A stretch of 64,000 nt of DNA from Gammaproteobacteria bacterium (GCA_020630515.1 JAHDBG010000001.1:3197-67196), one strand, 5' to 3'. Positions 22,911 through 55,731 are shown, counted from the first letter of the stretch. The notes: generated by a model from the sequence alone, not told the origin. Translations and numbers: made by a program.

Positions 22911-23019
22911 AAAATATCAGTTTATTATGTATCCGTGGGGGTCTGGCTGCGGCCATTCAGACCGCAGACGCCCTCGGCGAGTAGGCTCGGGTAACACTCT
23001 TTGCGTGCAGTGACCTGAA

Positions 23020-23589
23020 TCAGGATGAATAAAACTTTCCGGCATCCGGGCATAGATGATCAAAACGTTGTAGATATTCCTGCGCCGCTGTTTGCCAGTG
23101 CCATTCCGGAATATTCAGATTAAATGGTTTCAAGGAACTCACACTGGCTATATATTCATCAGACAGACAGGTGAATTTTTTTTGTTCCTGTAGAATCAGA
23201 GACAAATTAGCATTTAATAACCATTGAGGCCAGGGCCATTCTATATTAAAGCGTTGTGCAACCGCTCGTTCAATGCATTCTTTTAACGGCTTAATCTCAG
23301 GAACAACGTTTCTTACGCCAAAAGGAATATCTGAAATATAAACATCGACCCCATGATGCAATAACATAAGTAAGGCTTTTGCATCACTTCCCCAACTTTG
23401 GGTTAACACCCAGTCAGTCAATACACAACAATGAGTTGCAGTACTGTAAAAACAATTCAGATGACCATTAAAACGTACCACCTTAGCTAAGGAGTAAGCA
23501 ATATCATCAATGAATATATCATTTATATTCGGCGAAGCTAGGTCAAATAAAATACCAGAATTCGTTTCTATAAGTGTATTACTGTACAT
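23020..23589 (-). CDS. HD-superfamily phosphohydrolase-like protein with an eroded HD dyad
   Basis: SGILFDL..P...I.IDDIAYSLAKVVRFNGH...FYSTATHC and LLHHGVDVYISDIP follow the small HD-hydrolase pattern (T.SG..FD, RF.GH, FYSVAQHS, LLHDA.EAY.GD), but HD is replaced by HH. I prefer the start at ATG 23589, because the track start at 23637 overlaps the upstream gene. Confidence 0.5.
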   Translation of the reverse strand: MYSNTLIETNSGILFDLASPNINDIFIDDIAYSLAKVVRFNGHLNCFYSTATHCCVLTDWVLTQSWGSDAKALLMLLHHGVDVYISDIPFGVRNVVPEIKPLKECIERAVAQRFNIEWPWPQWLLNANLSLILQEQKKFTCLSDEYIASVSSLKPFNLNIPEWHWQTAAQEYLQRFDHLCPDAGKFYSS

Positions 23590-23593
23590 AAAT

Positions 23594-24259
23594 TTACTCT
23601 GAATAGCCTTGTGAAAAATCCAATAAACCCAGTCCATACTCTGCAGGGCGTATTGCAGGAATTATTTTCTCAAGTTCTATGGCTTGTTGAGGCCATCGGG
23701 TTTTTATATTGCACCATATCTCTTGTGTATCAGAAGTTCGGTGAATATCATCGATAATTACCAGTTTGGGCTTAAATAACATAAAATAGCAACCAAGGCA
23801 CGCTAATGTGTATTTATAAGCGTGTTGCGGATCATCTATATACAGAATGTCCACATTATCCTGAGATAATATAGATGCAATTCTTGAGATAACTTTGGGA
23901 TTTAATGGGTTTCCTGTAATTGGAATGACACTGTTATACTGGCCCAGTTCGTCTAAATTTCTTTGTTCTTCATCAATAGTCACGATTTTTACATTTGATG
24001 AATTATTGTTTTTAACGCAACCACGCTCAAATGCCCGGGTTGCTGAACCATACCAGGTTCCTATCTCAATAATGTTATTAGCCTGGATTGCATTAGCGAG
24101 GCCAGCAAAAAAAGAAAAATATGCCTGATGGCCAAAATTTTTTAATGGCTCAAAATGATCAGGCCCATATAAAATATCGGTCGTATCAATTTTCTTTCCG
24201 ATTGACCAGGCTCGTTGAATCAATCCTGAAGATTTTTCATTTCCCATAACTAAAATCAC
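23594..24259 (-). CDS. Class I SAM-dependent (family-3 O-methyltransferase-like) methyltransferase
   Basis: Motif I is IIEIGTWYGSAT, and a later block reads ILYIDDPQHAYKY...LVIIDDI. This resembles cation-dependent OMT/CmcI-type enzymes. The start is GTG 24259 or ATG 24247. Confidence 0.55.
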   Translation of the reverse strand: MILVMGNEKSSGLIQRAWSIGKKIDTTDILYGPDHFEPLKNFGHQAYFSFFAGLANAIQANNIIEIGTWYGSATRAFERGCVKNNNSSNVKIVTIDEEQRNLDELGQYNSVIPITGNPLNPKVISRIASILSQDNVDILYIDDPQHAYKYTLACLGCYFMLFKPKLVIIDDIHRTSDTQEIWCNIKTRWPQQAIELEKIIPAIRPAEYGLGLLDFSQGYSE

Positions 24260-26281
24260 TCATGTCAGAAATGCGGCTCTTTTTTTATCTACACCAGCAT
24301 TTCTTAAACCAATAATTAAAAATATGGCATTAACTAAAATAGCTGTCATAATGCTGAAGTGAAAAATGAAGGCACCGGACAGGTTGATAATACCTGGAAC
24401 TATAGCAACCATGAAACTATTCTTCAATTGTATTTCTAATTTTTTAGCCAGATTAAATAACTCATGTAAATGAGATAAGTTTCCATCCAGAAAAATAATT
24501 GAAGCTGTATCTGTAGCAACGTGGGCAGCACCTTGCATGGATATTGATACATTTGCTGTTTTTAAGGCAATACCATCATTAATGCCATCACCTATAAAAC
24601 AGACTTTTCTCCCTTTTTCCTGTAATTTTTTAACGATTGATGCCTTATCTTCAGGTAGAACTTCGTAAAAATATTCATCCGCATCAATTTCCTGAGCAAC
24701 CTTATGAGTGGGTAAACGATGGTCGCCGGAAACAACACCAATATGCTCAACACCATAATTGCGTAATTGCTGAATAACAGAGCAGACGTTCTCCTGAAGT
24801 TTTGCCTGAATTTCAATAATACCAATCACTTGCTGTTCAATAGAAACTAATACGAAAGAATTTCCCTGACCCTGAATATCAGCCAGATTATTCTTTAGCT
24901 GCTTGGGTATGTCAATACCCTGAGCTTGTATGAACCGTTCACTACCAACGTTAATACATTGTTGCCTGAGCCGCACACTAACTCCATTGCCTAAATGATA
25001 TTCGGAATGATCAAAAGCAGTTAATGGAATATTTAATGTTCTGGCCTTAGATAAAATAGCTTCGCCAATTGGATGGTTACATTTTTGTTCAGCAATGGCT
25101 GCATATCGTAATATTTCCATTTCCGCATAATCAGCAAGTGGAACAATACGGCATACTTCAGGACAAGGGTCAGTCAGTGTACCTGTTTTATCAAATAACA
25201 CCGTATCTACTCCGGCTAATTCTTCTAACGCTCTACCATCTTTTACCAGAATTTTCTGATTTACGGCATAATTAATATAATTAAGTGTCGTTAACGGTGA
25301 AAATAACCTGACTCTATTACCGACATGGCTTTTCAGAAATATGATGGCCGAGCTTATACCAAATGTTGGTATGACAAATAATGAAGCCAGCAGAGTAGGC
25401 AAAATAGCTGCATCTGACCATTGTTCCCCTTTTAATTGTAAAGTTGATTTAAAATCAACAGAGTGCTCAAGCAGATGGTTAATTTTAGCGACTGTGGTAT
25501 CAGTACCTGATTTTGTAACCTGAAGTAATAGTTTACCACTGGTTAATAAAGTTGATGCATAAACATCATCATGTAGCATTTTTTCGACAGGTTGCGCTTC
25601 TCCGGTTAATATTCTTTCATCAATGCCACCTGAACCTTCAACAATTTTACCATCAACTGGAATGACTTCTCCGGCATTCACAATAATAATATCTTTCTGT
25701 TCCACTGTTTCTGAAGGAATTTCAATCTCAATACCATCACGAAGTACCCAGATATTTCCGGACTGTTCAGTGAAATTTTTAATTAATGTCTGAGAGGAAT
25801 TGTCTTTTGCTTTGGTGATCAGAAAATTAGAGCAGTGCACAAAGAGTATGCCTAAAGCAGCAGCAGTATACTGACTGGTTGCTAAAGTCATTGAATCTGC
25901 AAAAAGAAATAATGCACTTACACCGATTTTTTTATCTTGGCGTAGTGATTTTTCGACACTTTTAATACACGGTAGCGTTATATAAAAAAATAAACCTAAA
26001 TTCAGTAGCCTTAGCTGCGGGAAAAATAATTCTGTACTAGCCGAAAAGGCAATGGATACTAAACTTAATTTAGTATATCTTGCATGTTCCGAGGGTGTTT
26101 CCAGTAAAGGCACTATGGGTGATGAAGCGACCATAGACTTTATAGCCTTCGGAACTTTTATATTCATATGGTCTTCAATATCTTTATAGCTATATTTTAT
26201 TTTCTTTTTTTTTTCTCTTCTTGTTTCCAGCTTACGTATCCCGGCATAAATGGCATACATAAGGCCTGCTTCAATTAACAT
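24260..26281 (-). CDS. P1B-like P-type ATPase lacking a CPx motif and an N-terminal metal-binding domain (copy 1)
   Basis: TGEAQPVEK, DKTGTLT, the N-domain NHP and GDGINDGIALK are all present. There is no GMxCxxC and no C-P-C/H/S triplet in the helix preceding ILVKDG. Confidence 0.85.
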   Translation of the reverse strand: MLIEAGLMYAIYAGIRKLETRREKKKKIKYSYKDIEDHMNIKVPKAIKSMVASSPIVPLLETPSEHARYTKLSLVSIAFSASTELFFPQLRLLNLGLFFYITLPCIKSVEKSLRQDKKIGVSALFLFADSMTLATSQYTAAALGILFVHCSNFLITKAKDNSSQTLIKNFTEQSGNIWVLRDGIEIEIPSETVEQKDIIIVNAGEVIPVDGKIVEGSGGIDERILTGEAQPVEKMLHDDVYASTLLTSGKLLLQVTKSGTDTTVAKINHLLEHSVDFKSTLQLKGEQWSDAAILPTLLASLFVIPTFGISSAIIFLKSHVGNRVRLFSPLTTLNYINYAVNQKILVKDGRALEELAGVDTVLFDKTGTLTDPCPEVCRIVPLADYAEMEILRYAAIAEQKCNHPIGEAILSKARTLNIPLTAFDHSEYHLGNGVSVRLRQQCINVGSERFIQAQGIDIPKQLKNNLADIQGQGNSFVLVSIEQQVIGIIEIQAKLQENVCSVIQQLRNYGVEHIGVVSGDHRLPTHKVAQEIDADEYFYEVLPEDKASIVKKLQEKGRKVCFIGDGINDGIALKTANVSISMQGAAHVATDTASIIFLDGNLSHLHELFNLAKKLEIQLKNSFMVAIVPGIINLSGAFIFHFSIMTAILVNAIFLIIGLRNAGVDKKRAAFLT

Positions 26282-26297
26282 TTACATCTCACTGTTT

Positions 26298-27452
26298 TCA
26301 GTTAGTTTCTGGTTCAGCGGAAACTTGATCCAGATAACGGGATAACCTGGTTAAACCTGTCTCAATATGATGTTTCGGACATGCAAAATTCAAGCGCAGA
26401 AAACCATGATCATGGTCTTGAAAGTCAATACCCGGAGTAGAGCTCAGTGCATAATAACGCGCTAAGTCTAACGAAGCCTGCAGAGTATCACAGCATGATT
26501 TTGTTATATCTATTAACGCAAAAAAACCTGCTTCAGGTTGCAAACGAAGTTTGAATCCCAGATTTTGAGCGGTATAGCTGAAAAAAGACCAGTTATCGCG
26601 TAACATCGCACGGTGTTTGCTGATTAATTCATCCCAATAGTGTAGTAGATGATTTGCCACTATCTGGCTGGGCAGGCTGGTACACATGTTCAGAATGGCT
26701 TTAACATTAGTCATCAACTGCACTTGTGATTCCGGCACGATCAGATAACCGATTCGAAAACCAGCAATTGCCAATGATTTTGAAAGACTGCTGACAACGA
26801 TATGTTGATTTGTAAAATGAATAGCGGAAGGAATGGTTTCATCCAGCAATGGTAAGGATTGATAAACCTCATCGAAGATCACAGGCACACCCATGCTGGT
26901 AATATATTCCAGTTCATCTGAACACAAAAATGTGCCGTGTGGATTGCTGGGGGAGTTGATTATAATAGCCCGTGTTTTATCGGAAATGAGTTGTGGTAAG
27001 CATTCAACATCAATATAGCCTTCATCGCGCATAGGGGCCAGACGATAGCCCGCTTTAAGAATTCTGACCATCACATTGTAAGCCGGATAACGTGAAGCAG
27101 GCAGAATCACTTCTCCTCCATCTTCCAGTAACATCGCCAGAGCAATCGTCATAGCTCCGGACGCCCCATCAGTAATGCAAACCCGATCTGGTGTCAAATC
27201 ATAATCAAACTTTTCCTGATAGTAACGACAAATAGCCTGCCGTAGACTTTCCAGGCCTGCGATATCACCATAACTGATATGCTTACCTAATTCTGTACGG
27301 CTGAGGTGGAAGTCGATATGACTGAAGGGATTAAAAGAGGAGGTACCCTTTCCAAAATTGATAGGGTCAAGCTTACCATGCACTGTGTTGTCAAACATAT
27401 CCATGACTTTATCCATCATCAGAGCTGGATATGCACAATTGTTTTCAGACAC
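26298..27452 (-). CDS. Class I/II PLP-dependent aminotransferase
   Basis: NSPSNPHG is present, and the PLP-lysine block is SSLSKSLAIAGFRIGY. Length is 384 aa. Confidence 0.85.
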   Translation of the reverse strand: MSENNCAYPALMMDKVMDMFDNTVHGKLDPINFGKGTSSFNPFSHIDFHLSRTELGKHISYGDIAGLESLRQAICRYYQEKFDYDLTPDRVCITDGASGAMTIALAMLLEDGGEVILPASRYPAYNVMVRILKAGYRLAPMRDEGYIDVECLPQLISDKTRAIIINSPSNPHGTFLCSDELEYITSMGVPVIFDEVYQSLPLLDETIPSAIHFTNQHIVVSSLSKSLAIAGFRIGYLIVPESQVQLMTNVKAILNMCTSLPSQIVANHLLHYWDELISKHRAMLRDNWSFFSYTAQNLGFKLRLQPEAGFFALIDITKSCCDTLQASLDLARYYALSSTPGIDFQDHDHGFLRLNFACPKHHIETGLTRLSRYLDQVSAEPETN

Positions 27453-27455
27453 TTG

Positions 27456-28439
27456 TTATGTCCTCTGAGAGTGTGCCTGATGTAATCTATCCAGCACTTG
27501 CGATAGTGTTTTATAATATTCGCGTGATATCTTGTTTACTATCTTATCCAGATCATCCGGGTATTTTTCCACCAGTTGTTCACTCCAGACAGGATCAATA
27601 TTTTTTTGTGCTAATAAATAGTATAAACGACGTTGTTTTTCATCATCTTGTTTAAGAGACCAGCGCTCACAAAATGCCAGTGTATCCTGCTTAAGATGCA
27701 AGTCCGCTAAATTATTAGTTATTAAATAATTCTCCAATGGTGTATTGCCGCCTGACAAGCCAAAACCATGTAACGAAACGTCAATCAGATCACAGCCAGA
27801 CGAAAATGCCCGACTCGAATTTTCGATCGCGTTACCCAAGGTGTCGTGTGCATGAAAGCCCAGAGGTTGATCAACTTCCTTTTTTGCTAATGTAATCAGC
27901 GACTCAACCTCATGAGGATACAATGCGCCTCGGGAGTCAGCCAGATATACCCGGTCTATACTTCTTGAGGATACGATTTTTTGCAGCAGATAAGCAATTT
28001 CATCGTGTCGGTAGGAAGAAATACAGATCAGGTTCAAACTAACCTTAATAGTTGCAGACTGTTCATGCAGATAATCGGCGATGATTAATGCTTCCTTCAT
28101 GGCGTCTTCTGTACAGGTCAGACGAATTAAAGAAAGATATTGCAGCTTGCCCGCAACAGCCTCTTTCCAGCCATCTTCCAGTGGATTCAACATGCCTACC
28201 CAATGCATCTTGGGATATGCATAGGTAATGTGCTCCAGAAATTTAATCGGACAACCATTCACCGATGAAGTTGTTCTGGCAGGTGTGCGTAAAAAGCCGA
28301 TCTCTACCTGATGAATGCCTTGCTTACAGATAAAATCAATCATAGCCATGATTTCTTCGGTAGAAAACTGCCATTGGTTCAGGTAACCACCGTCTCGTAA
28401 AGTTACATCAAGAATATTACTCAAAGAAATATTTTTCAT
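27456..28439 (-). CDS. HMGL-like (pyruvate carboxyltransferase/aldolase TIM-barrel) enzyme
   Basis: DVTLRDGGY lies near the N-terminus, and HAHDTLGNAIENS is the second metal-binding motif. At 327 aa it has no IPMS-type regulatory domain. Confidence 0.75.
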   Translation of the reverse strand: MKNISLSNILDVTLRDGGYLNQWQFSTEEIMAMIDFICKQGIHQVEIGFLRTPARTTSSVNGCPIKFLEHITYAYPKMHWVGMLNPLEDGWKEAVAGKLQYLSLIRLTCTEDAMKEALIIADYLHEQSATIKVSLNLICISSYRHDEIAYLLQKIVSSRSIDRVYLADSRGALYPHEVESLITLAKKEVDQPLGFHAHDTLGNAIENSSRAFSSGCDLIDVSLHGFGLSGGNTPLENYLITNNLADLHLKQDTLAFCERWSLKQDDEKQRRLYYLLAQKNIDPVWSEQLVEKYPDDLDKIVNKISREYYKTLSQVLDRLHQAHSQRT

Positions 28440-28483
28440 TTTTTTGTCTGATTTTTTTTCAAATTAGTGAATGATCATGAGGA

Positions 28484-29803
28484 TTATGCAGGTGAAAAAC
28501 GATAATTTAAACGTTGTTTTATATCTGCAAGGATGTTCAATATTTCCTCACGGCTGTTACCCGGAATACTGATCATACAATAGCGATAAGTGTCAATAGA
28601 ACGTTTGGATTCAGAGAGCTTTTTGATGCCAGGTGGAATACGGTTAACAATCTTGATATCCGGATAGGATAAATATATTGCGGACAAATTGTCAGTATCA
28701 GGAGTTTCCAGAATATGCTGATCTTCAAAGGTGCGTAATTCACATGAATAGCAAAGAGAATAGGTAGATGCCTGTCTGGTAGGTGGCTTGTCACCACAAG
28801 CAAGAGCACACATCGTTGTCAGCATATCATCGCCGCTGGCCATGGCATACAGATTTTCGTATTGAACGACTGCTCTCGGGTTGATTTCGATAATGGTTAG
28901 TTTGTCTTTCTCAAAATCAATATAAAATTCAATATCGAATTCAGTATTGTCCAGGCCAGTATGTGCAACAAAACGTTGCACCATGCGCTCAATCTGGTAC
29001 CGCCATCGATCAGGCAAATCTGCCGGGCATTCATGATATTCAAAGCTTTTTGAGTTCGGCAGAAAATATTCAGCTACGATTCCATGCAAACTGATTTCAC
29101 CATTGACGATATAGCCATTAACTGCAAATTGCCGCCCTGCAATGATTTCTTCACACAGATATTGGTTGCAATTTCCAGCACTTTGTAACAGCCTGCTATT
29201 ACCGAATACGGTAGTTAGTGCTTCGATATAGGGTTGATTGAACTGTTGCAGCATCAGGCGTTCATTATTGATTTTTTTATGCAGTTCCTGTGCGGAGTGA
29301 ACGATCGCGCAACCAAAAGAACCTGCTGCCCGAACAGGCTTAGCAAAAACGGGAGTAATAGCAAACTTGCTAGCGGCGTAATCCTCAGCAGATGCAAATG
29401 CTGGCGTATGTTCAGGTACACTTTCCTGCTGCAACATTCTGCAATATAGTTTATTCTGGCAACGTGCAATACTTTCAAGTGGCGGGGCGATTTTGTCTGA
29501 CAGGTGAGCAATAGCAGCAGCGATGGCATTAGGTGTGTCAAAAAAGCCAGTGACCCCGTCAAAAAATCCTTTGTGCTCTTTAATAGCATCTGATATTGCT
29601 TCGATATAGTGTCGTACACCCATTACCTGGATAGCTTCAATGGATTCGTTGATCACTTCGTAATCAGGATGTTCACGAAATTTTTCTTCTAAAAATGTCA
29701 AAGAATTACTTTCGGAAATCATCAATACACGCTTACGGTGAGAGTCTTTTTCAGGTGTATAACGTTGTAGCGTATCCGATATCAGACTATTATGTGAATT
29801 CAT
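28484..29803 (-). CDS. ATP-grasp ligase (L-amino-acid-ligase-like)
   Basis: The 439-aa protein has a pre-ATP-grasp N-domain. Its central blocks are FAKPVRAAGSFGCAIV, LCEEIIAGRQFAVNGYIVNGE and IIEINPRA, which is the ATP-grasp fold pattern. Confidence 0.72.
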   Translation of the reverse strand: MNSHNSLISDTLQRYTPEKDSHRKRVLMISESNSLTFLEEKFREHPDYEVINESIEAIQVMGVRHYIEAISDAIKEHKGFFDGVTGFFDTPNAIAAAIAHLSDKIAPPLESIARCQNKLYCRMLQQESVPEHTPAFASAEDYAASKFAITPVFAKPVRAAGSFGCAIVHSAQELHKKINNERLMLQQFNQPYIEALTTVFGNSRLLQSAGNCNQYLCEEIIAGRQFAVNGYIVNGEISLHGIVAEYFLPNSKSFEYHECPADLPDRWRYQIERMVQRFVAHTGLDNTEFDIEFYIDFEKDKLTIIEINPRAVVQYENLYAMASGDDMLTTMCALACGDKPPTRQASTYSLCYSCELRTFEDQHILETPDTDNLSAIYLSYPDIKIVNRIPPGIKKLSESKRSIDTYRYCMISIPGNSREEILNILADIKQRLNYRFSPA

Positions 29804-29918
29804 TATTTTGTGGGGTGTATGGGGTAGGGTACTGGCGCACGGATAGCATACCAGGTAACGCTTTGTGCAGTGGTACGATCGCCTCTGCGGCTGTTTTCAA
29901 GTAGGTGCCATCGGTGCA

Positions 29919-31667: not shown

Positions 31668-32997
31668 ACTATCATCTTTTTGTCCCGCGCAATTACTGAC
31701 ACAATTGCGCGACCTGCCACGACCGGCGCATTATCTGGTTGCGTACAGCGGTGGAGTGGATTCACATGTTCTGCTACATGCGCTCGCAACCTGCCGGGGT
31801 CAGTATATGATTTCTCTGCAGGCGATCCATGTGCAGCATGGCCTGCATCCTGAGGCAGGGAAGTGGGCAGCCCATTGTCAGGCGGTCTGTCAAGCGCTGG
31901 ACATTCCGTTGCAGATTGTTTCTGTGCAATTGCAGCGACCAGCCGGCGCCAGCCTGGAGGCGGTTGCACGCGAAGCACGCTATGCCGCGTGTCAGCAACA
32001 TGCCTTGCCGGGCACCATGCTGCTGACGGCACACCATGCGGATGATCAGGCTGAAACAGTGCTGCTGCAGTTGTTACGCGGTGCCGGCATCGCTGGTCTG
32101 GCAGCGATGCCGATCTGCCGTACCACACCATCGGGTTGGCATGCCCGACCCTGTCTGCACTGGTCGCGTCAGGCATTGCAGCAGTATGCGCAACAACATG
32201 CTCTGACCTGGATTGAAGACCCGAGCAACCAGAATACCGATTTTGATCGGAATTATATCCGTCAGCAGGTCATGCCGTTATTGCAGGCACGCTGGCCAGC
32301 TGCGAACCGGACTCTGGCACGTAGCGCCAGCCATGTCGCAGCGATACTACCGCTGGTTCAGGCACAGGCCCGGCGGGATCTGGCGGACAGTTGCGACCTG
32401 ACCGGGCATCTGCGGGTGTCGGTATTGCGCGAGTTGCCGGAGGTGCGTTGTCAGCAGGTGTTACGTGCCTGGATCCACCAGACTGACCATCCGGTGCCGA
32501 ATCAGGCGCAATTGTCAGAAATAGTAGACCAGGTTATTTATGCCGCACCTGACAGCCAGCCGCAGATTGCCTGGCAGAATAGTGAGTTACGTCGTTATCG
32601 GGATGTGCTGTGGTTATTGCATCGGCCATTACCGCCACTGCCGGACAAGCCGTTGGTCTGGCCGGTACAGATGCAGACATTGACATTACCCGTCGGATGT
32701 GGAGTGTTGCGCCGTATACCGGCGGAGCAGGGGTTACCGGCTCAATATTGGCAGCAGGGACGGGTATCGGTGCGCTGGCGTCGTCAGGGTATCCGTTGCC
32801 GGCCTGCTGGCCGACAGGGTCACCGCAGCTTTAAAAAGCTGTGCCAGGACTATGGTGTCCCACCCTGGCAACGGTCTTATGTGCCGTTGTTGTATCTGGA
32901 TGATCAGTTGATTGCGGTGGCTGATATCTGTCTGTGCATGGAGCCGATCACGGGTGATACCTGTCATCAGTTACAGTGGTTGCGGGATAATGGTTAA
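31648..32997 (+). CDS. tilS: tRNA(Ile)-lysidine synthase
   Basis: The PP-loop [12 protein letters not shown] is present. The accA-tilS order is conserved, and length is 449 aa. Confidence 0.85.
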
Positions 32998-33686
32998 GAA
33001 CGACAGAATTCATAAAATTCGGACCGGTAATCTGTATTCTGAGCAAGATAATCGCCCGAAAACTGCGTTGTCTTCATCGCAGCACCGGCATGTTTCACGC
33101 CTCGGCAACTGACACAATGGTGTTCGGCCGCGACCATCACCGCGACCCCGATATTGCCTGTGCAGATCTGATCAACCATATGATGTATGGCTAAGGTCAT
33201 CTGTTCCTGAATCGTACCGCGCCGCGAGCATTGTTCAACAATGCGATTTAACTTGGACAGCCCGACCACTTGGCCGTCCTGACGTGGGATATACGCAATA
33301 TGGACTCGTCCCAGAATCGTCTGATGATGGTGCGAACACATTGAAGTCAGCGGGATATTACCCTCAAACACCTGTCCGTTGTAGCCGTCACATGGAAAAC
33401 TGGTGATGTTATTTAATGGCTCATACCGGCCTTGCCATAAATCGTGGACGTAGGCCTTCGCGACTCGTCTTGGAGTATCTGCTGAGTTCGGATCCTGTTG
33501 CCAGTTACAGCCTAGTGCGTTCAGAAAATGGCCGAAATGTTGTGCTGCTTCGGCAATAATCGCCTCTTTTTCGGCTGTTGTGAGACGGGCCTGATTGCCA
33601 TGTTGCGCTTGTTTAGCAGCTAACTGGGTTGAAATGCCATTCGCATATCCGACTGGAGCCAGTTCCAGGCTATGTTGTTTTTTCAT
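32994..33686 (-). CDS. folE: GTP cyclohydrolase I (FolE type IA) variant
   Basis: TPRRVAKAY, TSMCSHHHQTILGRVHIAYIP, VGLSKLNRIV, QEQMT and HHCVSCRG align with E. coli FolE ([21 protein letters not shown] ... HYCVKARG). ATG 33686 has an AAGGA RBS. The track start at 33770 overlaps the upstream ATPase. Confidence 0.82.
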   Translation of the reverse strand: MKKQHSLELAPVGYANGISTQLAAKQAQHGNQARLTTAEKEAIIAEAAQHFGHFLNALGCNWQQDPNSADTPRRVAKAYVHDLWQGRYEPLNNITSFPCDGYNGQVFEGNIPLTSMCSHHHQTILGRVHIAYIPRQDGQVVGLSKLNRIVEQCSRRGTIQEQMTLAIHHMVDQICTGNIGVAVMVAAEHHCVSCRGVKHAGAAMKTTQFSGDYLAQNTDYRSEFYEFCRS

Positions 33687-33702
33687 AACATCCTTGTCTG
33701 TA

Positions 33703-35853
33703 TTATGTGTTGATATCCGACTGATGAGTGACTGAGGTACGGTTGTTTGCATAAATGCAGTGGCGCGCATCGCTCCGCACTGAATCGTTCTGGTGATGTC
33801 CGGTTTCAGGTATTTCCCGATGCTTGATCAAAGACCATAAGACATTGCCTAATCCAATGAAGGTATTCACGTACCAGATAGCCATGCTGACTGCAAGACC
33901 TGTATGTAAAAGATAAATGCCCGGGATGATGAGAAAGCCCGGTACAAAGCTGATTACCAGGTTTTTTTGCATGGTCTGTTCAAACTGATCACCTAACCGG
34001 AAAAACTCCGGGACTTTGGCCAATGTGCCATCCATCAGCACCACTTGCGCGGTATCCGTGGCAGCACTGGATGCGCCGGATAAGGAAAGCGAAACATGAG
34101 CTTTTTTCAGTGCAATCGCGTCATTAATGCCATCCCCGACGAAACAGACAAAGCGCCCCTGTGCCTGCAGCTGTTCGACATAGTCAGCCTTATGTTCAGG
34201 TAATACACCAGAAAAATAATGTTGAATACCAAGTGATTGTGCCAGGCTGCGTGTAGGCCCGGCATGGTCACCAGAGATAATATATAGCCGTATGTTACGC
34301 TGTTGTAAAAATTGTACTATTTCGGCTGCTTCTGGCCGGATGGTTGGTTGCAGCGTAAGGATACCAGCCAGCTCCTGATTGACCGCAACATAGATCAGGC
34401 TGTGTCCATGTTCATCTGACTGTGCCTGCAATGCTTGAAGTGTGTCAGGTAATACAACGCCTTGTTGTTGTAAGAACCGTGCGCTACCGACCTGGATACA
34501 GTCATCCTGACAGTGTACCCGGATGCCGTAACCGAGGTTATAGTTTGCAGTATCCGGGATGGGTAATTCCAGTTGTTCTGCTGCTGCTCTGGCCAGGATG
34601 GCCTTTGCCACCGGATGTGGCTGACGGTACTCTGCGACGGCAGCGTAACGTAATACATCGGTTTCGGTATAGTGACCAAATGGCCGGATAGCACTGACTG
34701 TGGGTTGTTCCAGCGTGAGGGTGCCGGTCTTATCAAACACGACGGTATCAACATCACGTAATAATTCAAAGACCCGCCCGTCTTTGATCAGAATGTTGCG
34801 GCGAGACAGGATTTGCAGATAACTCATCACACTTAACGGGCCGAGCGTTGCCATCAGCCCGCCAAGATTTGCCCATAACATCGCCAGTGCTGATTCGGAT
34901 CCCAGAACAGGCAGGGTCAGTACACTCAGCCCAATGGTAACCGGTAGATACTGGTTCGCGATCTGGCAGCCACGCGTGGTCAGGTTGTCTTTATAACTTT
35001 GGGTTTCACTGAGTACTGTGCCAATCTTTGCAGCGAGTGTGGCTTCACCAGTGGTTTGTACCTGAATGTGTAACTGACCGGATAATAATAAAGTCGCAGC
35101 GAAGACCTCATGACCAGGCGTTTTTTCCACCGGCTGGCTCTCGCCGGTCAGGATATGCTGATCCACCTGGCCATGGCCTGCTGTGATGATACCATCAATC
35201 GGGATAATTTCACCTGGATGTACAATAACCTGGTCGCCTGCCTGCAGATCCTGAAACGGAATCTGGATTTCGGCGTCATCCACCATGATCCAGATCTGTT
35301 CCGGGCGATCACAAAACACATTGATCAGCTGATAATGTGAGGCTTCTTCCATTCGATTGACGATGCGTGCCAGAAAACCCGTGATGATCGCTGAAACAGC
35401 AGCAAAGATGAATCTGCCAGACGCCAGCATCCAGCAGATCATGATCAGTGAGACTATTTGGAAGGTGAAATAATGACCGCGTTGAAAATCCTTGCGGATC
35501 AGCTTCAGTATATCTTTCGTCAGATAAAGTACGGCAGCTGTACTGATCAGATTCATGACCGGGAAATAAGCACCGGATATAGCCAGGGCTAATGCGCACA
35601 GTCCAAACTTCTGCTGTCGTTGCGCGCGCTCTTTTTCTGCCTGAAGTTGCTGTTGCACTGCCGGACTGATGGCACCGTGTAACTGGTTCTGCCCGGTAGC
35701 CTGAAGCGCTTCCCGGATATCGCGCCATAGTTGCCGCAGCGGTCTGTGCTGCGTGGTGGGTAAGACACGATTCTGTTTTTCCGGAACAGGCCGACTTCGC
35801 CAGAGACGATAGCCCAGAGCTCCAGCACTTAATGTTGCCAGCTCAATCCACAT
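33703..35853 (-). CDS. P1B-like P-type ATPase lacking a CPx motif and an N-terminal metal-binding domain (copy 2)
   Basis: TGESQPVEK, DKTGTLT, the N-domain PHP and GDGINDAIALK are present. There is no cysteine motif in the helix before ILIKDG. The architecture matches the 24260-26281 copy. Confidence 0.85.
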   Translation of the reverse strand: MWIELATLSAGALGYRLWRSRPVPEKQNRVLPTTQHRPLRQLWRDIREALQATGQNQLHGAISPAVQQQLQAEKERAQRQQKFGLCALALAISGAYFPVMNLISTAAVLYLTKDILKLIRKDFQRGHYFTFQIVSLIMICWMLASGRFIFAAVSAIITGFLARIVNRMEEASHYQLINVFCDRPEQIWIMVDDAEIQIPFQDLQAGDQVIVHPGEIIPIDGIITAGHGQVDQHILTGESQPVEKTPGHEVFAATLLLSGQLHIQVQTTGEATLAAKIGTVLSETQSYKDNLTTRGCQIANQYLPVTIGLSVLTLPVLGSESALAMLWANLGGLMATLGPLSVMSYLQILSRRNILIKDGRVFELLRDVDTVVFDKTGTLTLEQPTVSAIRPFGHYTETDVLRYAAVAEYRQPHPVAKAILARAAAEQLELPIPDTANYNLGYGIRVHCQDDCIQVGSARFLQQQGVVLPDTLQALQAQSDEHGHSLIYVAVNQELAGILTLQPTIRPEAAEIVQFLQQRNIRLYIISGDHAGPTRSLAQSLGIQHYFSGVLPEHKADYVEQLQAQGRFVCFVGDGINDAIALKKAHVSLSLSGASSAATDTAQVVLMDGTLAKVPEFFRLGDQFEQTMQKNLVISFVPGFLIIPGIYLLHTGLAVSMAIWYVNTFIGLGNVLWSLIKHREIPETGHHQNDSVRSDARHCIYANNRTSVTHQSDINT

Positions 35854-36027: not shown

Positions 36028-36801
36028 ATGATGAGTTTGTCAGGTTCTGTAAACAAAAAATCTTTGGCATGGGATACCATGCGTGGTACATTCGATTCTT
36101 GTGGAGGAGAAAGCTTTCATCCGACTGATGAAGAAATTAAATTATTTTTAGATTCTGTATCTCCGCAAGACAACATAGCAGTGATTGGTGCTATCACAAA
36201 AAAACTGGTAGATTCACTGATAGCAAAAAATATCAATCCGGTGGTTCTGGATTTTTCTCATGATATGTGCCAGGACTTAAAAAAAGTATCTGGGTTACAA
36301 ACAATTTATTTATATGATGTGATGCAGGAACCGCCGGGGGATCTTGTCGGAAAATTTGATTTTATTCTGACACATCGGCTGCTCAATCAGTTCATGCGCG
36401 AAGAAGTAATTCGTGTCTTATACAATATGGTACAACTTTTAAAACCTCAAGGCCGTATCCGAACATCTGTTAAATTGGGTTTTTATGCGTCAGATGTAGA
36501 TCTTATTGAGCAGGGGAAGCAGAAGAATATCGTACAGAAATTTTATGACCCACACACAAAAACGATAGACTTCTCAGCCGCAGGGCCATTGCTGGATAAA
36601 TTAGTTCAGGTACAATCTGATATACCGGAAGATACCTTGATAAGGTGGTATAAGCTACGCGGGGAAATTAGCCGGTTTGAGTGTCAGGATATGATTGATA
36701 TCGCCAGCACATGTCAGGAGATTATGCTGGAATCTGTCATGCAACCTGAAAAAGCGAGTGTTGAAAACACTCATTTTTATACCTTCACTAAAATTATCTG
36801 A
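36028..36801 (+). CDS. Methyltransferase-fold protein with an eroded SAM motif I
   Basis: The sequence is low GC. The order IAVIGAITKK ... VVLDFSHDMC ... FDFILTHRLLNQF ... LLKPQGRI follows class I MTase motifs I, II and post-III, but the GxGxG loop is missing. The start has no clear RBS. Confidence 0.45.
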   Translation: MMSLSGSVNKKSLAWDTMRGTFDSCGGESFHPTDEEIKLFLDSVSPQDNIAVIGAITKKLVDSLIAKNINPVVLDFSHDMCQDLKKVSGLQTIYLYDVMQEPPGDLVGKFDFILTHRLLNQFMREEVIRVLYNMVQLLKPQGRIRTSVKLGFYASDVDLIEQGKQKNIVQKFYDPHTKTIDFSAAGPLLDKLVQVQSDIPEDTLIRWYKLRGEISRFECQDMIDIASTCQEIMLESVMQPEKASVENTHFYTFTKII

Positions 36802-51385: not shown

Positions 51386-53338
51386 TTACCGAGTGTGTTT
51401 GCCGGAATCATCATGCGCGGTCCTGAAACCGATATAACGGGCGTCAGTCGAAGCAAGCAGTCCGCCGAGAGCCATCAGTACCGCACCCCACCAGATCCAG
51501 CGGATAAACGGCTTGTGGTATAGCCGCACGCCCCAGGCACCGTCAGTCAGTGGCTCGCCGAGCGCAACAAACAGGTCGCGCGTCAACCCCGGGTCAATTG
51601 CGGCTTCGGTCATCGGCATCTTCTGCACGGAATAGATCCGCTTTTCAGGCAACAGCTGCAGAGTGTCGCCATCCGGTGTCTGCACACTGATCCGGCCACG
51701 GCTTGCCTGATAATTGGGCCCGGCATGTTGTGCTACACCCTCAAAGGTAAACACATAACCATCCAGAGTGTAGGTTTCGCCGGGTGCCAGGCGCAGGTCT
51801 TTTTCAGTTGAATAGGTCGTGGTGAGTGTGACACCGATGATAAATACCACGATGCCCAGATGCCCCAGATTCATACCCCAGTAACCACGTGGTAGCTGAC
51901 GCCAATGCGTGGTACTGCGCAGACGCTGGTACAGGCCGCTGAGGGTGGAAGCACCAACCCAGCAGGCCAACGACAGACCAAGTAATGCAGTCCAGGCCCA
52001 GGTTGGTGTGAACAGCCAGGCCCAGACGAAAGCGAGTAATATTGCGAGCAACAGCGGCAGGCGCAGCACCGTACCGATGCGTGCCGGTGTGTCCCTGCCC
52101 CAGCGCAGGTGCGGCCCGATACCGAGCAACAGGATCAGTGGCAGCATTAACATGCTGAACATCCGGTCAAAATAAGGCTGACCGACAGAAATCTTGCCGA
52201 GTTGCAGTGCATCACTCAGCAGTGGATACAGAGTGCCGAGCAGAATCATCGCCGCAGCAACCAGTAGCAGTACATTATTCAGCAGCAACCCGGTCTCACG
52301 TGAGACCGTATGCAACAGAATCTGGCTGCGGATAGTCTGTGCACGCAGGGCATACAACAACAATGAGCCCCCGACCACGGCGACCAGAAACGCGAGGATA
52401 AACACACCGCGCTCCGGGTCGGAAGCAAACGCATGAACTGAGGTCAGTATGCCGGAGCGTACCAGAAAGGTACCGAGCAGGCTGAGTGAGAAGGCACAGA
52501 TCGCGAGCAACAGAGTCCAGGCCTTGAAGGCACCTCGCTTGTCGGTCACCGCAAGCGAATGCATCAGGGCGGTGCCGACCAGCCAGGGCATAAAGGATGC
52601 ATTTTCGACCGGATCCCAGAACCACCAGCCGCCCCAACCCAGTTCGTAATAGGCCCACCAACTGCCCAATGTGATGCCGAGTGTCAGGCAGACCCAGGCC
52701 AGATGTACCCAGGGCCGCATCCAGCGTGCCCAGGCGGCATCAAACTGTCCGCTGAGCATCGCGGCAACTGCGAATGCAAACGGGATCGCAAAGCCGACAT
52801 AGCCCAGATACAGCATCGGCGGATGAAAGATAAGTCCCGGGTCTTGTAATAATGGATTGAGGTCGCGTCCTTCAATTGCTGCCGGCACCAGCCGGGCAAA
52901 CGGATTGGAGGTAAACAGCATAAATGCCAGAAAGCCGACACTGACTAGGCCCAGGACGCTCAGAATACGTGCCAGCAGCGGGGTTGGAATCTGGCGACTG
53001 AAGTAGCTGACTGCACTGGTCCACAGTGCCAGGATCAATGTCCAGAGCAACAGGGAACCTTCGTGTGCACCCCAGACCGCCGAGATCAGATAAGGGACAG
53101 GCAGTTGCGTATTCGCATTGTGGGCGACATACGCGACCGAAAAATCATGGGTGAGAAAGCTGGTGGTCAGCAGACCGAACGCGCCGAGCAGGGCGAGGGT
53201 ATGCAGATGGCTGAGGGGACGGGCGAGGGTAATCCACAGGGGGATATCGCGTTGTGCGCCAATCAGAGGCAGGGTACCCAGTAACAGCGCCAGGATGCAG
53301 GCGAGGCTGAGTAAGAATTGACCAAGTTCAGGAATCAC
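51386..53338 (-). CDS. ccmF: Cytochrome c-type biogenesis protein CcmF (heme lyase family)
   Basis: The WWD motif WGGWWFWDPVENASFMPWL is present. The 650-aa protein is polytopic. The GTG start overlaps the upstream stop (GTGA). Confidence 0.9.
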   Translation of the reverse strand: MIPELGQFLLSLACILALLLGTLPLIGAQRDIPLWITLARPLSHLHTLALLGAFGLLTTSFLTHDFSVAYVAHNANTQLPVPYLISAVWGAHEGSLLLWTLILALWTSAVSYFSRQIPTPLLARILSVLGLVSVGFLAFMLFTSNPFARLVPAAIEGRDLNPLLQDPGLIFHPPMLYLGYVGFAIPFAFAVAAMLSGQFDAAWARWMRPWVHLAWVCLTLGITLGSWWAYYELGWGGWWFWDPVENASFMPWLVGTALMHSLAVTDKRGAFKAWTLLLAICAFSLSLLGTFLVRSGILTSVHAFASDPERGVFILAFLVAVVGGSLLLYALRAQTIRSQILLHTVSRETGLLLNNVLLLVAAAMILLGTLYPLLSDALQLGKISVGQPYFDRMFSMLMLPLILLLGIGPHLRWGRDTPARIGTVLRLPLLLAILLAFVWAWLFTPTWAWTALLGLSLACWVGASTLSGLYQRLRSTTHWRQLPRGYWGMNLGHLGIVVFIIGVTLTTTYSTEKDLRLAPGETYTLDGYVFTFEGVAQHAGPNYQASRGRISVQTPDGDTLQLLPEKRIYSVQKMPMTEAAIDPGLTRDLFVALGEPLTDGAWGVRLYHKPFIRWIWWGAVLMALGGLLASTDARYIGFRTAHDDSGKHTR

Positions 53339-55688: not shown

Positions 55689-55731
55689 ATTCTGCAGTGA
55701 CCAGGTATGTTGCAGAGTGTCTGAGCAGATT

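Follow-up and report, generated by a model that had tools for sequence, protein, structure and literature searches.

The 64,000-nucleotide stretch of Gammaproteobacteria DNA analysed here (hereafter the window; GCA_020630515.1 JAHDBG010000001.1:3197-67196) contains two genes for P-type ATPases, referred to as copy 1 and copy 2 (Table 1). Copy 1 is one of six tightly packed, co-oriented genes on a low-GC island, and is the only membrane protein among them. Copy 2 lies outside the island and is co-transcribed only with folE, while the mtnABC genes nearby are on the other strand. The two proteins are only 34% identical and fall in different subfamilies, and are therefore not recent paralogues.

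Table 1. Features of the two ATPase loci, in window coordinates
Position	Strand	Feature	Supporting evidence
24260..26281	-	Copy 1: 673-aa Cys-less P1B-like P-type ATPase, subfamily with TM4 consensus NSHIGNRIR	Pfam E1-E2_ATPase (E = 5e-28) and HAD Hydrolase (E = 7e-27); TIGR01525 373 bits; AlphaFold2 pLDDT 81.5, pTM 0.72, with 8 TM helices plus an extra N-terminal helix
25307..25330	-	TM4 segment S318-H-V-G-N-R-V-R325; V320-G321-N322 occupy the CPC columns; helix break predicted at S318-V320	Multiple alignment; HMMER alignment to 3j08; DSSP on the model, H309-317 / H321-341; subfamily conservation H319 77%, G321 78%, R325 72%
25178..25192	-	Phosphorylation motif D364-K-T-G-T368	Invariant in the 50-sequence family alignment
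25598..25606	-	Actuator-domain motif T226-G-E228	Invariant in the family alignment
25070..25075	-	N-domain H403-P404 dipeptide typical of P1B pumps	Invariant in the family alignment
24575..24592	-	P-domain hinge motif G564-D-G-I-N-D569	D565, G566, N568 and D569 invariant
26194..26278	-	Family-specific N-terminal helix (residues 2-29), a short hydrophobic stretch followed by a Lys/Arg cluster; possible ninth membrane helix or interfacial anchor (role inferred only)	AlphaFold helix 2-29; Y12 93%, G14 87% conserved
22911..29918	.	7-kb low-GC island carrying copy 1, between hisD and the DUF218/ElyC-like gene	GC 39.6% against 54.4% for the rest of the window; DUF218 and hisD about 20 bp apart in a syntenic relative, with orthologues at 83-91% aa identity
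28484..29803	-	Island gene 1: ATP-grasp ligase (439 aa)	Pfam ATP-grasp_4, E = 8.5e-15
27456..28439	-	Island gene 2: HMGL-like aldolase or 2-oxoacid-condensing enzyme (327 aa)	Pfam HMGL-like, E = 1.1e-24; NCBIfam partial matches to 4-hydroxy-2-oxovalerate aldolase and homocitrate synthase, all below cut-off
26298..27452	-	Island gene 3: fold-type-I PLP enzyme (384 aa); best named relatives GntC and VioD-type cyclodehydratases and aminotransferases, not a member by cut-off	Pfam Aminotran_1_2, E = 1.2e-36; NCBIfam GntC 211 bits (cut-off 415), VioD 108 bits
23594..24259	-	Island gene 5: CmcI-like SAM methyltransferase (221 aa), starting at the base after the ATPase stop codon	Pfam RMNT_CmcI, E = 5.3e-6
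23020..23637	-	Island gene 6: 205-aa protein	No Pfam, NCBIfam or PADLOC hit; an H...HH...D pattern may resemble HD-domain hydrolases
33703..35853	-	Copy 2: 716-aa Cys-less P1B-like ATPase of the second subfamily (TM4 consensus LWSxLGGxMA)	TIGR01525 384 bits; AlphaFold2 pLDDT 79.9, TM4 unwound at W327-L333; orthologue in the syntenic relative 69% identical
32994..33770	-	GTP cyclohydrolase I (FolE type I), immediately downstream of copy 2; likely true start Met29 at 33686, 17 bp after the ATPase stop	Pfam GTP_cyclohydroI, E = 1.1e-41

The island and its surroundings

The island is horizontally acquired and is absent from a syntenic relative (locus L087; L-numbers denote individual loci found in this study) in which DUF218 directly abuts hisD. 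No direct or inverted repeats were found flanking 22.9-29.9 kb, nor any integrase or transposase. Copy 2, in contrast, has its orthologue in L087, where the gene order is ATPase, PTPS, FolE, and is vertically inherited there. The 7.4-kb spacing between the two copies is therefore an accident of where the island landed. Promoter and terminator scans were at shuffle level (28 against 27 expected; 15 against 11.7) and were not used.

An intact catalytic core without a recognisable metal site

The initial annotation, which described copy 1 as a P1B-lineage ATPase with an intact catalytic core but no recognisable metal-binding residues, is confirmed in its observation. The open reading frame is real, and TGEAQPVEK, DKTGTLT, CNHPIGEAI and GDGINDGIALK are present, followed through in the family by invariance of TGE, DKTGT, HP, SGD, K546 and GDGxND across 50 members. 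Counting back from ILVKDG (I344) gives V320-G321-N322 in copy 1 and L330-G331-G332 in copy 2, and a 234-sequence MAFFT alignment places exactly these residues in the columns that are C-P-C in 100% of CopA-type sequences. HMMER alignment to A. fulgidus CopA (3j08) agrees. The TM5 Y-N of CopA is P629-G630 in copy 1, no HMA domain was detected by Pfam, and neither protein has a CxxC or a His run; copy 1 has only a non-conserved CPEVC at 373-377 in the soluble part.

The pattern is not chance, as all 120 best relatives of copy 1 and all 120 of copy 2 lack Cys in this segment. At the family level the CPC columns read I/G/N (copy 1 type) or L/G/G (copy 2 type), and no Cys or Met is conserved at 70% or more in any TM helix of the copy 1 subfamily. 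One nuance was missed by the initial annotation: directly before V-G-N lie S318 (70% conserved) and H319 (74-77% in the subfamily), with R325 (71-72%) following, so that TM4 is not devoid of polar residues, although it contains no Cys or Met and no known P1B ligand set. Cavity-lining residues were approximated from secondary structure and conservation.

The P1B membrane architecture is predicted for both copies, with helices in copy 1 at 63-85, 88-115, 121-134, 138-170, 284-307, 309-341, 604-639 and 644-662, including the P1B-specific MA/MB pair before M1-M6. Copy 1 passes the general heavy-metal profile TIGR01525 (cut-off 346 bits), as does copy 2, and its best Foldseek matches are CopA, ZntA, sCoaT and ATP7B, followed by KdpB. 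It fits none of P1B-1 to P1B-7, whose TM4 motifs are CPC, CPH, SPC, PCP, SCA and CSC (PMC13460109). For P1B-1 (CPC in TM4, YN in TM5, MxxSS in TM6), TIGR01511 gives 246 bits against a cut-off of 397, and although the TM6 alignment is uncertain, no Met or Ser is conserved in M6 of the subfamily. For P1B-2 and P1B-4 (CPC or SPC in TM4, with Lys/Asp or HEGxT in TM5-6), TIGR01512 gives 274 bits against 313.5, ZntA equivalogs are far below cut-off, and there is no Cys in TM4.

A large Cys-less family

Copy 1 is not a one-off. The family numbers at least 240 clusters at 90% identity; this is a lower bound, since a phmmer search with copy 1 residues 1-120 against 1.84 billion representatives gave only 8 weak hits (E >= 1e-6), the N-terminus being too divergent for a single-sequence search. 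A scan of metagenome contigs with back-translated patterns (FDKTGTLT, GDGxND) was too generic, and only about 9 of 80 loci were family members, mostly short. Members occur in giant sulfur bacteria, cable bacteria, methanotrophs, Planctomycetota, Chloroflexota, Acidobacteriota and Entotheonella, and public databases label them copper, zinc or heavy-metal exporters, which the sequence does not support. Candidatus Methylobacter oryzae KRF1 (L014) is the only family-carrying genome in the scan that is not labelled as a MAG. In the full-text literature searched, which did not include Smith et al. 2014, the source of the P1B classification, we found no description of Cys-less P1B-like pumps or of P-type ATPases as natural-product exporters.

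In a crude, distance-based NJ tree the family is monophyletic (bootstrap 100/100), groups with a small D(F/Y)GTGIR group (97), and then, as a sister lineage and not nested inside, with the P1B-6 "SCA" pumps, although this deepest relevant node has only 65% support. The P1B-6 pumps, which include the P1B-6-like M. tuberculosis CtpC, have poorly understood substrates (PMC13460109). They share with the family a TM4 frame (acidic or His at position 0, Lys or Arg at +6, Pro at +10), an Asp at the start of M3 that CopA lacks, and the absence of a classical CxxC HMA domain. Ser-Cys-Ala is 100% conserved in the 29 SCA sequences sampled, whereas these columns read G-N-R (copy 1) or G-G-L (copy 2). The TM5 Asn (97% in the SCA group) is Gly or Ser in both subfamilies and no H-N is conserved in M6, and the N-x18-H-N-x-(S/T) hallmark is therefore missing.

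The segment equivalent to CPC is hypervariable between paralogues (SHVGNRVR, AHNGELVR, GHIAQSIR, SNFSEIIR, SAPGLDMM, ANLGGLMA and others), yet TM4 is 94% conserved between close orthologues at 79% overall identity, which fits site diversification rather than decay. In the copy 2 subfamily, Met residues are conserved in M1, M4 and M6 (M142, M334, M657; 65-88%). We claim no homology of the copy 2 Met and Glu sites with the CopA entry site (Met in M1, Glu in M2), as HMMER alignments to LpCopA start only at residue 188 and the corresponding columns are Ala and Lys in CopA in the multiple alignment. An apparent resemblance of the LGGLMA of copy 2 to the IGGLL of KdpB is four residues out of register with respect to DKTGT and was dismissed.

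Genomic context of the family

At least 17 of 35 non-redundant family loci have biosynthetic or tailoring enzymes in the same operon-like run, as read from Pfam names on metagenomic contigs with genes called by a longest-ORF heuristic and without an antiSMASH-type call. These include an NRPS C-A-T-TE directly abutting the ATPase (L088), a trans-AT PKS plus O-methyltransferase (L174), FMO, P450, PRMT-like methyltransferase, SnoaL and SDR (L027), JmjC, methyltransferase and sulfotransferase with two ATPases (L089), ornithine cyclodeaminase and radical SAM (L173), and methyltransferase and 2OG oxygenase (L020). A CmcI-type methyltransferase, as in the island, lies two genes upstream of a family ATPase in L026. 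Several paralogues occur per genome, each beside different enzymes (L025/L026, L089, L020). About half of the loci show no such neighbours or were too short to judge, and the N-extended planctomycete and alphaproteobacterial members carry an HMA_2 domain and sit next to a second P-type ATPase.

As a control, we examined 119 neighbours of 55 canonical P1B pumps, of which 24 give cupredoxin, CsoR, HMA or ArsR hits. None of these appears among the recurrent families of the 80 neighbours of the Cys-less family (Fisher p = 2e-6). All-against-all clustering of 445 ORFs from 30 loci found no neighbour family shared beyond 3-4 loci, and no conserved neighbouring membrane protein, so that a conserved partner gene on the KdpFABC or PacL model was rejected. 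An anti-phage defence role was likewise rejected, as PADLOC returned no hit for either ATPase or for the island genes.

Discussion

The interpretation given in the initial annotation is partly supported. Its placement of the protein in the P1B lineage, with no known transmembrane or terminal metal site and a substrate that cannot be given by known P1B rules, holds; a profile alignment revealing a ligand set, or assignment to a subfamily of known substrate, had been named beforehand as grounds for rejecting it, and neither was found. The suggestion that two nearby paralogues, each inside a metabolic operon, imply a shared and unusual role is not supported, given their divergence, the island origin of copy 1 and the vertical inheritance of copy 2. 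"Metabolic operon" also needs correcting, as copy 1 sits in a specialised-metabolite-type cluster. Nor did the annotation recognise a large family whose genomic context points away from metals.

We propose, tentatively, that copy 1 runs the ordinary E1-E1P-E2P-E2 cycle and that what it moves out of the cell is not a thiophilic metal ion but the small, probably charged, amino-acid-derived product of the island, which encodes an aldolase, a PLP enzyme, an ATP-grasp ligase and a methyltransferase. In this view the pump would do the job that MFS or ABC exporters do in other biosynthetic clusters. The integrity of the motifs, the loss of the metal ligands, membership of the clade, the horizontal origin of the island and the biosynthetic rather than metal-related neighbourhood of the family rest on direct analysis; that the protein undergoes a phospho-enzyme cycle coupled to transport, that it transports at all, the direction of transport and the identity of the substrate with the cluster's product are inferences from sequence and context, without experimental support of any kind. 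No bacterial P1-type ATPase is known to carry an organic substrate, and the P1B pathway is narrow. The basic residue at TM4 position +6 (R325) is inherited from P1B-6, where it is Lys in 90%, and is therefore not evidence for a new substrate.

The solved CopA, ZntA and sCoaT pumps (4bbj, 7r0g, 4umw and 7qbz; E = 1e-37 to 1e-40, TM-score 0.55-0.65) share fold, topology and A/P/N-domain motifs including HP with copy 1, but at 22-29% identity; CPC/SPC in TM4, Y-N (or Lys) in TM5, the N-terminal HMA domain and CopZ, CsoR or MerR-type neighbours are absent from copy 1, which has an extra N-terminal helix. KdpB (P1A) is the next-best structural relative (E about 1e-31) and also lacks a Cys-based site and an HMA domain, but the kdpB profile TIGR01497 gives 161 bits against a cut-off of 528, the MA and MB helices are present in copy 1, and no KdpA, KdpC or KdpF-like partner was found. 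The P5B polyamine exporters (ATP13A2) and P4 lipid flippases show that the P-type cycle can move organic cations or lipids once the TM4 site is remodelled, but this is a functional analogy only, as these are eukaryotic 10-TM pumps of other subfamilies with different TM4 motifs and weak sequence matches (TIGR01657, 91 bits against 618). Cluster-encoded MFS, ABC and MATE exporters, such as BacE of the bacilysin dipeptide cluster, occupy the same position as the single transporter gene in a compact biosynthetic operon that includes an ATP-grasp ligase, but are unrelated in protein family and energy coupling, and export by copy 1 remains a prediction.

The strongest alternative, though we consider it unlikely, is that copy 1 is still an inorganic-cation pump for a non-thiophilic ion (H+, Mg2+, Mn2+, Fe2+, Ca2+ or similar), serving the ion needs or ion stress of the host rather than the cluster. 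Its site would be built from H319, S318, N322 and backbone carbonyls at the TM4 break, with R325 as a built-in counter-charge, as Lys/Arg counter-ions are in ZntA and plasma-membrane H+-ATPases. The conservation of S318, H319, G321 and R325 at the predicted helix break, the D/H at position 0 and K/R at +6 shared with P1B-6, and a sister-group member (L028) next to a Na/Ca exchanger and a CLC channel are consistent with this reading. These residues are not conserved across the family, however: the copy 2 subfamily has N/G/D, L, G, G/S and A/G/S at the same positions, and other paralogues differ again. No metal sensor, chaperone or ion-homeostasis gene recurs near family members, and a housekeeping ion pump would not be expected as the only transporter of a horizontally transferred six-gene biosynthetic island, nor in operons behind NRPS/PKS genes. 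Less likely still, the pump may export or import a metallophore or its metal complex, or supply a metal to the cluster's enzymes, with ligands coming from the small molecule. Its ancestry among metal pumps, the conserved Met residues of the copy 2 subfamily, which could make a thioether site, and the proximity of copy 2 orthologues to FolE and PTPS, both Zn enzymes, speak for this reading. But the associated clusters are chemically heterogeneous (PKS, NRPS, pterin-type, sulfated or methylated small molecules), none shows classic metallophore hallmarks such as TonB receptors or siderophore-type import genes within the flanks seen, and copy 1 has no conserved Met or Cys in its TM helices.

Two further readings are very unlikely. 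The protein could have ceased to transport, serving as a membrane-anchored regulator, scaffold or KdpB-like energiser of a partner, or be a decaying pump, as the loss of the canonical ion site, the strong variation of the site segment and the dependence of KdpB on partner subunits might suggest. The absence of a conserved neighbouring membrane protein across 30 loci, the invariant catalytic motifs over a family spanning many phyla, the conservation of TM helices, TM4 especially, between orthologues and the confidently predicted P1B architecture argue otherwise, and a decaying gene would not be retained in hundreds of lineages. The least likely is a self-resistance copy, a drug-insensitive duplicate of a P-type ATPase targeted by the cluster's toxic product. 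Resistant target duplicates are a recognised theme in biosynthetic clusters, and the gene lies inside such clusters, but very different cluster types would all have to target the same pump family; having lost its metal site, the protein could not replace a CopA or ZntA function; and the family is deeply diverged from housekeeping P1B pumps rather than a near-copy of them.

In P-type ATPases, substrate class has so far been readable from the TM4 motif, whereas here a large and phylogenetically broad clade keeps the engine but has erased the metal site. It is possible, though less likely than not, that this whole clade, now annotated as "heavy metal translocating", "Cu2+-exporting" or "P-type Zn(2+) transporter", has switched from metal ions to organic small molecules, with the remodelled TM4-TM6 pocket of each paralogue tuned to export the product of the cluster that encodes it. 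This would be the first P-type ATPase class dedicated to natural-product export, and the first organic-substrate P-type pumps in bacteria. The repeated placement of family members as the only transporter inside NRPS, PKS and amino-acid-tailoring operons gives a concrete, testable hypothesis for a new substrate class, and would provide a new marker gene for cryptic clusters in poorly studied, mostly uncultured bacteria. Even if the substrate turns out to be an inorganic ion, the site chemistry would be new for P1B pumps and would shed light on the unexplained P1B-6 branch.

Catalytic motifs and overall identity of the two ATPases

The first ATPase gene (copy 1) is an intact ORF of 673 codons. 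A Pfam search finds in its product an E1-E2_ATPase actuator domain and a HAD-type Hydrolase domain but no HMA domain, and the protein passes NCBIfam's general heavy-metal P-type profile TIGR01525 (373 bits against a cut-off of 346), while the Cu (TIGR01511), Cd/Zn (TIGR01512), ZntA, CopA and KdpB models all fail their cut-offs. The motifs on which the initial annotation based its claim of an intact catalytic core are present at T226-G-E, D364-KTGT, H403-P404 and G564-DGIND, together with S518-G-D. The second gene (copy 2) gives the same picture, and its product is 34% identical to that of copy 1 over the full length. Coordinates of these and other features are collected below.

Coordinates of features in the window and at related loci
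Location	Strand	Feature
22911-29918		Low-GC island carrying copy 1
28484-29803		ATP-grasp ligase (island)
27456-28439		HMGL-like aldolase / condensing enzyme (island)
26298-27452		Fold-type-I PLP enzyme (island)
24260-26281	-	ATPase copy 1 (island)
23594-24259		CmcI-like methyltransferase (island)
23020-23637	-	205-aa protein with no family, last gene of the island
32994-33770	-	Longest folE ORF; probable true start Met29 at 33686
33703-35853	-	ATPase copy 2
36028-36801	+	257-aa ORF transcribed divergently from copy 2
52001-56000		AT-skew excursion
58569-63965	-	1,798-aa ORF occupying the last 5.4 kb of the window
L009:1145-1543, L012:662-1087, L013:2538-2996		~130-150-aa protein preceding family members with an N-terminal HMA_2 extension
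L089:1186-12073		Cluster with two Cys-less ATPase paralogues
L028:4941-10327		Run containing a member of the 'DFGTGVR' sister group

Loss of the transmembrane metal site

An HMMER alignment to A. fulgidus CopA (3j08) places 'vgn' under 'CPC' and 'pg' under the TM5 'YN'. We then aligned 234 P-type ATPases, comprising 96 relatives of the two window proteins and 138 other P-type ATPases taken from the loci retrieved. In this alignment the CPC columns read C-P-C in 100% of CopA-type sequences and (Y/F)-S-C in 100% of P1B-6 sequences, but I/V - G - N/A in the copy 1 subfamily (V320-G321-N322 in copy 1) and L - G - G/S in the copy 2 subfamily (L330-G331-G332 in copy 2). The TM5 Y-N columns read Y-N in CopA-type pumps, F/I/V - N in P1B-6 (Asn 97%), P - G/S in the copy 1 subfamily and P - G in the copy 2 subfamily. 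Neither window protein has CxxC or a His run.

Among the 120 sequences of the copy 1 subfamily, no Cys or Met reaches 70% conservation in any membrane helix, and the only conserved polar residues near the site are S318 (70%), H319 (77%), R325 (72%) and T332 (98%). The observation made in the initial annotation, that V-G-N and L-G-G stand where metal-binding residues would be expected, is therefore confirmed, with the one nuance that a semi-conserved Ser-His pair sits just before the V-G-N of copy 1. The copy 2 subfamily conserves one Met each in M1, M4 and M6 (M142, M334 and M657; 65-88%) and a near-invariant Glu169 at the end of M2; these residues do not align with the ligands of CopA, although together they could form a thioether-type site.

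Predicted fold

Models of both proteins were built by AlphaFold2 with family alignments (pLDDT 81.5 and pTM 0.72 for copy 1; pLDDT 79.9 and pTM 0.70 for copy 2). Each predicted structure has the eight P1B helices (MA, MB, M1-M6) plus an additional N-terminal helix (residues 2-29 in copy 1) followed by a basic cluster, and M4 is interrupted exactly at the CPC-equivalent segment, at S318-V320 in copy 1 and at W327-L333 in copy 2. A Foldseek search against the PDB ranks CopA (4bbj, 7r0g), ZntA (4umw), sCoaT (7qbz) and ATP7B first, followed by KdpB. The predicted engine and membrane scaffold are thus those of a P1B pump.

A family of Cys-less ATPases and its placement

The 120 best database relatives of copy 1 are 38-47% identical to it, and the 120 best relatives of copy 2 are 48-80% identical, apart from one 100%-identical record. 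All are full length, lack HMA domains and have no Cys in the TM4 segment. The consensus TM4 motif is 'VFINSHIGNRIRLLAPLGTLNH' for the copy 1 type and 'AVLWSxLGGxMAxLGPLSVLSYLQILSR' for the copy 2 type, while a third group, which has a ~200-residue N-terminal extension holding an HMA_2 domain, shows 'NSDFGTGIRMAAP'. Carriers include Thiotrichaceae, Parabeggiatoa, Thioploca, Chromatiaceae, Sedimenticolaceae, Methylobacter, cable bacteria (Electrothrix), Planctomycetota, Acidocella and Rhodopila, Entotheonella, Chloroflexota and Acidobacteriota. In Planctomycetota and Rhodopila, members with the HMA_2 extension (loci L009, L012 and L013) are preceded by a conserved protein of ~130-150 aa that, in the one copy scanned (L013), has no Pfam match at E<=1e-5 and in which a hydrophobic stretch can be seen by eye. 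Loci L009 and L021 have a second P-type ATPase gene in the same co-directional run and L016 has one on the opposite strand, so this looks like a distinct sub-system.

A neighbour-joining tree built from 608 alignment columns with Kimura distances, and rooted on three P2-type sequences, separates 95 of the 96 relatives from everything else with 100/100 bootstrap support; the 96th, from locus L028, falls in a group with the motif 'DFGTGIR'. The nearest neighbours of the family are five 'D(F/Y)GTGIR' sequences (97/100), next come all 29 'SCA' (P1B-6) sequences (65/100), and CPC, CPH, SPC, CPD, CPG and CSC pumps lie outside. As this is a crude distance tree, the sister relationship to P1B-6 should be regarded as probable and not settled. 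Shared derived characters agree with it: TM4 position 0 is Asp in 100% of SCA pumps and His in 74% of the copy 1 type; position +6 is Lys in 90% of SCA pumps and Arg in 71% of the copy 1 type, whereas CopA has Gly there in 100%; and an Asp at the start of M3 is shared by the family and the SCA group and is absent in CopA. The family nevertheless fails both P1B-6 hallmarks (PMC13460109), namely SCA and the TM5 Asn of N-x18-HNx(S/T).

Genomic setting of the two copies

Base composition drops from about 54% to 36-42% GC between 23 and 30 kb, and the island carrying copy 1 as a whole is 39.6% GC against 54.4% for the rest of the window. It holds six co-oriented, tightly packed genes. The best named relatives of its PLP enzyme are GntC and VioD, although both matches are below cut-off, and its last gene matches no library searched but shows an 'RFNGH...H...LLHHGVDVYISD' pattern reminiscent of HD-domain phosphohydrolases. 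The flanks are hisD on one side and a DUF218/ElyC-like gene, accA and tilS on the other. A metagenomic relative (L087) carries the same backbone (hisC, hisD, DUF218, accA, tilS ... folE, PTPS, ATPase), with proteins 69-91% identical to those of the window (83-91% for hisD, DUF218, accA and folE), and in it DUF218 directly abuts hisD. The island is therefore an insertion, placed precisely between these two genes, and copy 1 is a xenologue; the island has no integrase, transposase, tRNA or flanking repeats.

Copy 2 is the resident gene, and it is followed by folE, encoding a GTP cyclohydrolase I with its Zn-site Cys and His residues intact. The longest folE ORF overlaps the end of copy 2 by 68 bp and has a ~28-residue N-terminal stretch absent from the 230-aa orthologue in L087; the real start is probably the internal Met29, giving a 17-bp gap after the ATPase stop and tight coupling to the ATPase. 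In L087 a PTPS/QueD-type gene lies between the two, and the PTPS and PNP genes that accompany folE there are missing here. In a 65%-identical orthologue (L090) the ATPase is followed by an EgtD-type methyltransferase, with pterin-binding, SDR and QueF-fold genes on the opposite strand. The initial annotation took the 7.4-kb spacing of the two window genes, each inside a metabolic operon, to suggest a shared and unusual role, but the spacing is coincidental, and its interpretation was only partly supported.

Elsewhere in the window, the ORF transcribed divergently from copy 2 lies in a lower-GC stretch (46%) ahead of mtnA, mtnB and mtnC; it has no NCBIfam match, and by eye it has a Rossmann/SAM-methyltransferase-like 'VIGA...D' start. 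AT skew swings from +0.20 to -0.26 between adjacent 2-kb bins, the strongest excursion in the window, coinciding with a switch of coding strand around 54.1 kb.

Genomic setting of the family

No single neighbour is conserved across the family. Instead, the ATPase recurs as a member of operon-like runs of biosynthetic and tailoring enzymes. In Electrothrix (L088) the stop of an NRPS C-A-T-TE gene overlaps the ATPase start, and at locus L174 a trans-AT PKS/NRPS with TE is followed by an O-methyltransferase, the ATPase and a SnoaL-like gene. Other runs comprise FMO, P450, a PRMT-like methyltransferase, the ATPase, an amidohydrolase, SnoaL and an SDR (L027); ornithine cyclodeaminase, the ATPase and a B12-radical-SAM enzyme (L173); a methyltransferase, a 2OG oxygenase, the ATPase ... 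and PhzF (L020); and the ATPase, a FAD oxidoreductase, an adenylating enzyme and a 2,210-residue ORF related to NRPS/adenylating proteins of other loci (L014). One Sedimenticolaceae genome has both a run of a CmcI-type methyltransferase, DUF2332, a glyoxalase and the ATPase (L026) and a run of PfkB, the ATPase, arginine decarboxylase and a carbamoyltransferase (L025). At locus L089 a JmjC hydroxylase, a methyltransferase, the ATPase and a sulfotransferase are followed further on by a second ATPase; the two Cys-less paralogues lie within 12 kb of one cluster that also holds a 692-aa unknown protein and five small ORFs (52-168 aa), and which could be a RiPP-like or sulfated small-molecule cluster. 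By our count at least 17 of 35 non-redundant loci show such biosynthetic neighbours, and many of the rest are short contigs. In contrast to this context, the member of the 'DFGTGVR' sister group at L028 lies in a run with a Na/Ca exchanger and a CLC chloride channel, an ion-homeostasis setting.

As a control, the same neighbour rule (same strand, gaps under 250 bp, up to three genes each side) was applied to 55 canonical P1B loci. The recurrent families among their 119 neighbours were Cupredoxin_1 (8), CsoR-type repressors (7), HMA / CopZ (7), DsbD_2 (4), thioredoxins and ArsR (2), whereas those among the 80 neighbours of the Cys-less family were AMP-binding (3), generic SAM methyltransferases (3), CmcI (2), PP-binding (2), SnoaL_4 (2), FAD oxidoreductase (2), 2-hydroxyacid dehydrogenase (2), FolE (2) and PAP2 (2). 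No metal-related family recurs in the second set, and taking 24/119 against 0/80 gives Fisher p = 2e-6. As this comparison covers only the 25 most frequent families, a single metal-related neighbour could be hidden, although none appeared among the roughly 60 neighbours inspected individually.

Conservation of the membrane domain

The membrane domain is not decaying. Between copy 2 and its closest orthologue (79% identical overall) the TM helices are 77% identical and TM4 is 94% identical, and TM identity tracks soluble-domain identity down the series. What varies is the site segment between paralogous lineages, which reads SHVGNRVR, AHNGELVR, GHIAQSIR, STFGNRLR, SNFSEIIR, GNTVQAIR, SAPGLDMM, CPLGWFIR, ANLGGLMA and others. 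Conservation within orthologues combined with diversity among paralogues is what one expects of a specificity-determining pocket.

Possible functions

Our analysis establishes that copy 1 has an intact P-type catalytic cycle signature and P1B architecture (the latter as predicted), that it has lost all known P1B metal ligands, that it belongs to a large, distinct clade, probably beside P1B-6, that it was acquired horizontally within a six-gene biosynthetic island in which it is the only membrane protein, and that the neighbourhood of the family is biosynthetic and not metal-related. That the protein transports at all, and that it exports the product of its cluster, are inferences, and we hold this reading only tentatively, as the most plausible of those considered yet somewhat less likely than not. 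For the island in the window the product would plausibly be a methylated, amino-acid-derived or dipeptide-like compound made by the aldolase, PLP enzyme and ATP-grasp ligase, although the chemistry is a guess from domain names.

Alternatively, the protein may be a pump for a harder cation or proton using H319, S318 and N322, which we consider unlikely but the strongest of the rivals. Transport of a metal-metabolite complex, or metal supply, is less likely again, and is somewhat more attractive for copy 2 in view of the Met residues kept by its subfamily. A non-transporting role appears very unlikely, and a resistance decoy the least likely of these possibilities.

By fold and ancestry copy 1 is a P1B-type pump, yet by the defining transmembrane and cytosolic metal sites it is not a member of any of P1B-1 to P1B-7, and it is not KdpB-like in operon or profile. 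Functional analogies are known only outside bacteria (P5B polyamine pumps, P4 flippases) or outside the protein family (MFS/ABC exporters in clusters), and full-text literature searches found no description of this clade or of P-type pumps as natural-product exporters. While the case rests for now on sequence, predicted structure and gene context alone, the finding is of interest because the export hypothesis is directly testable and the substrate class of these pumps may be new.
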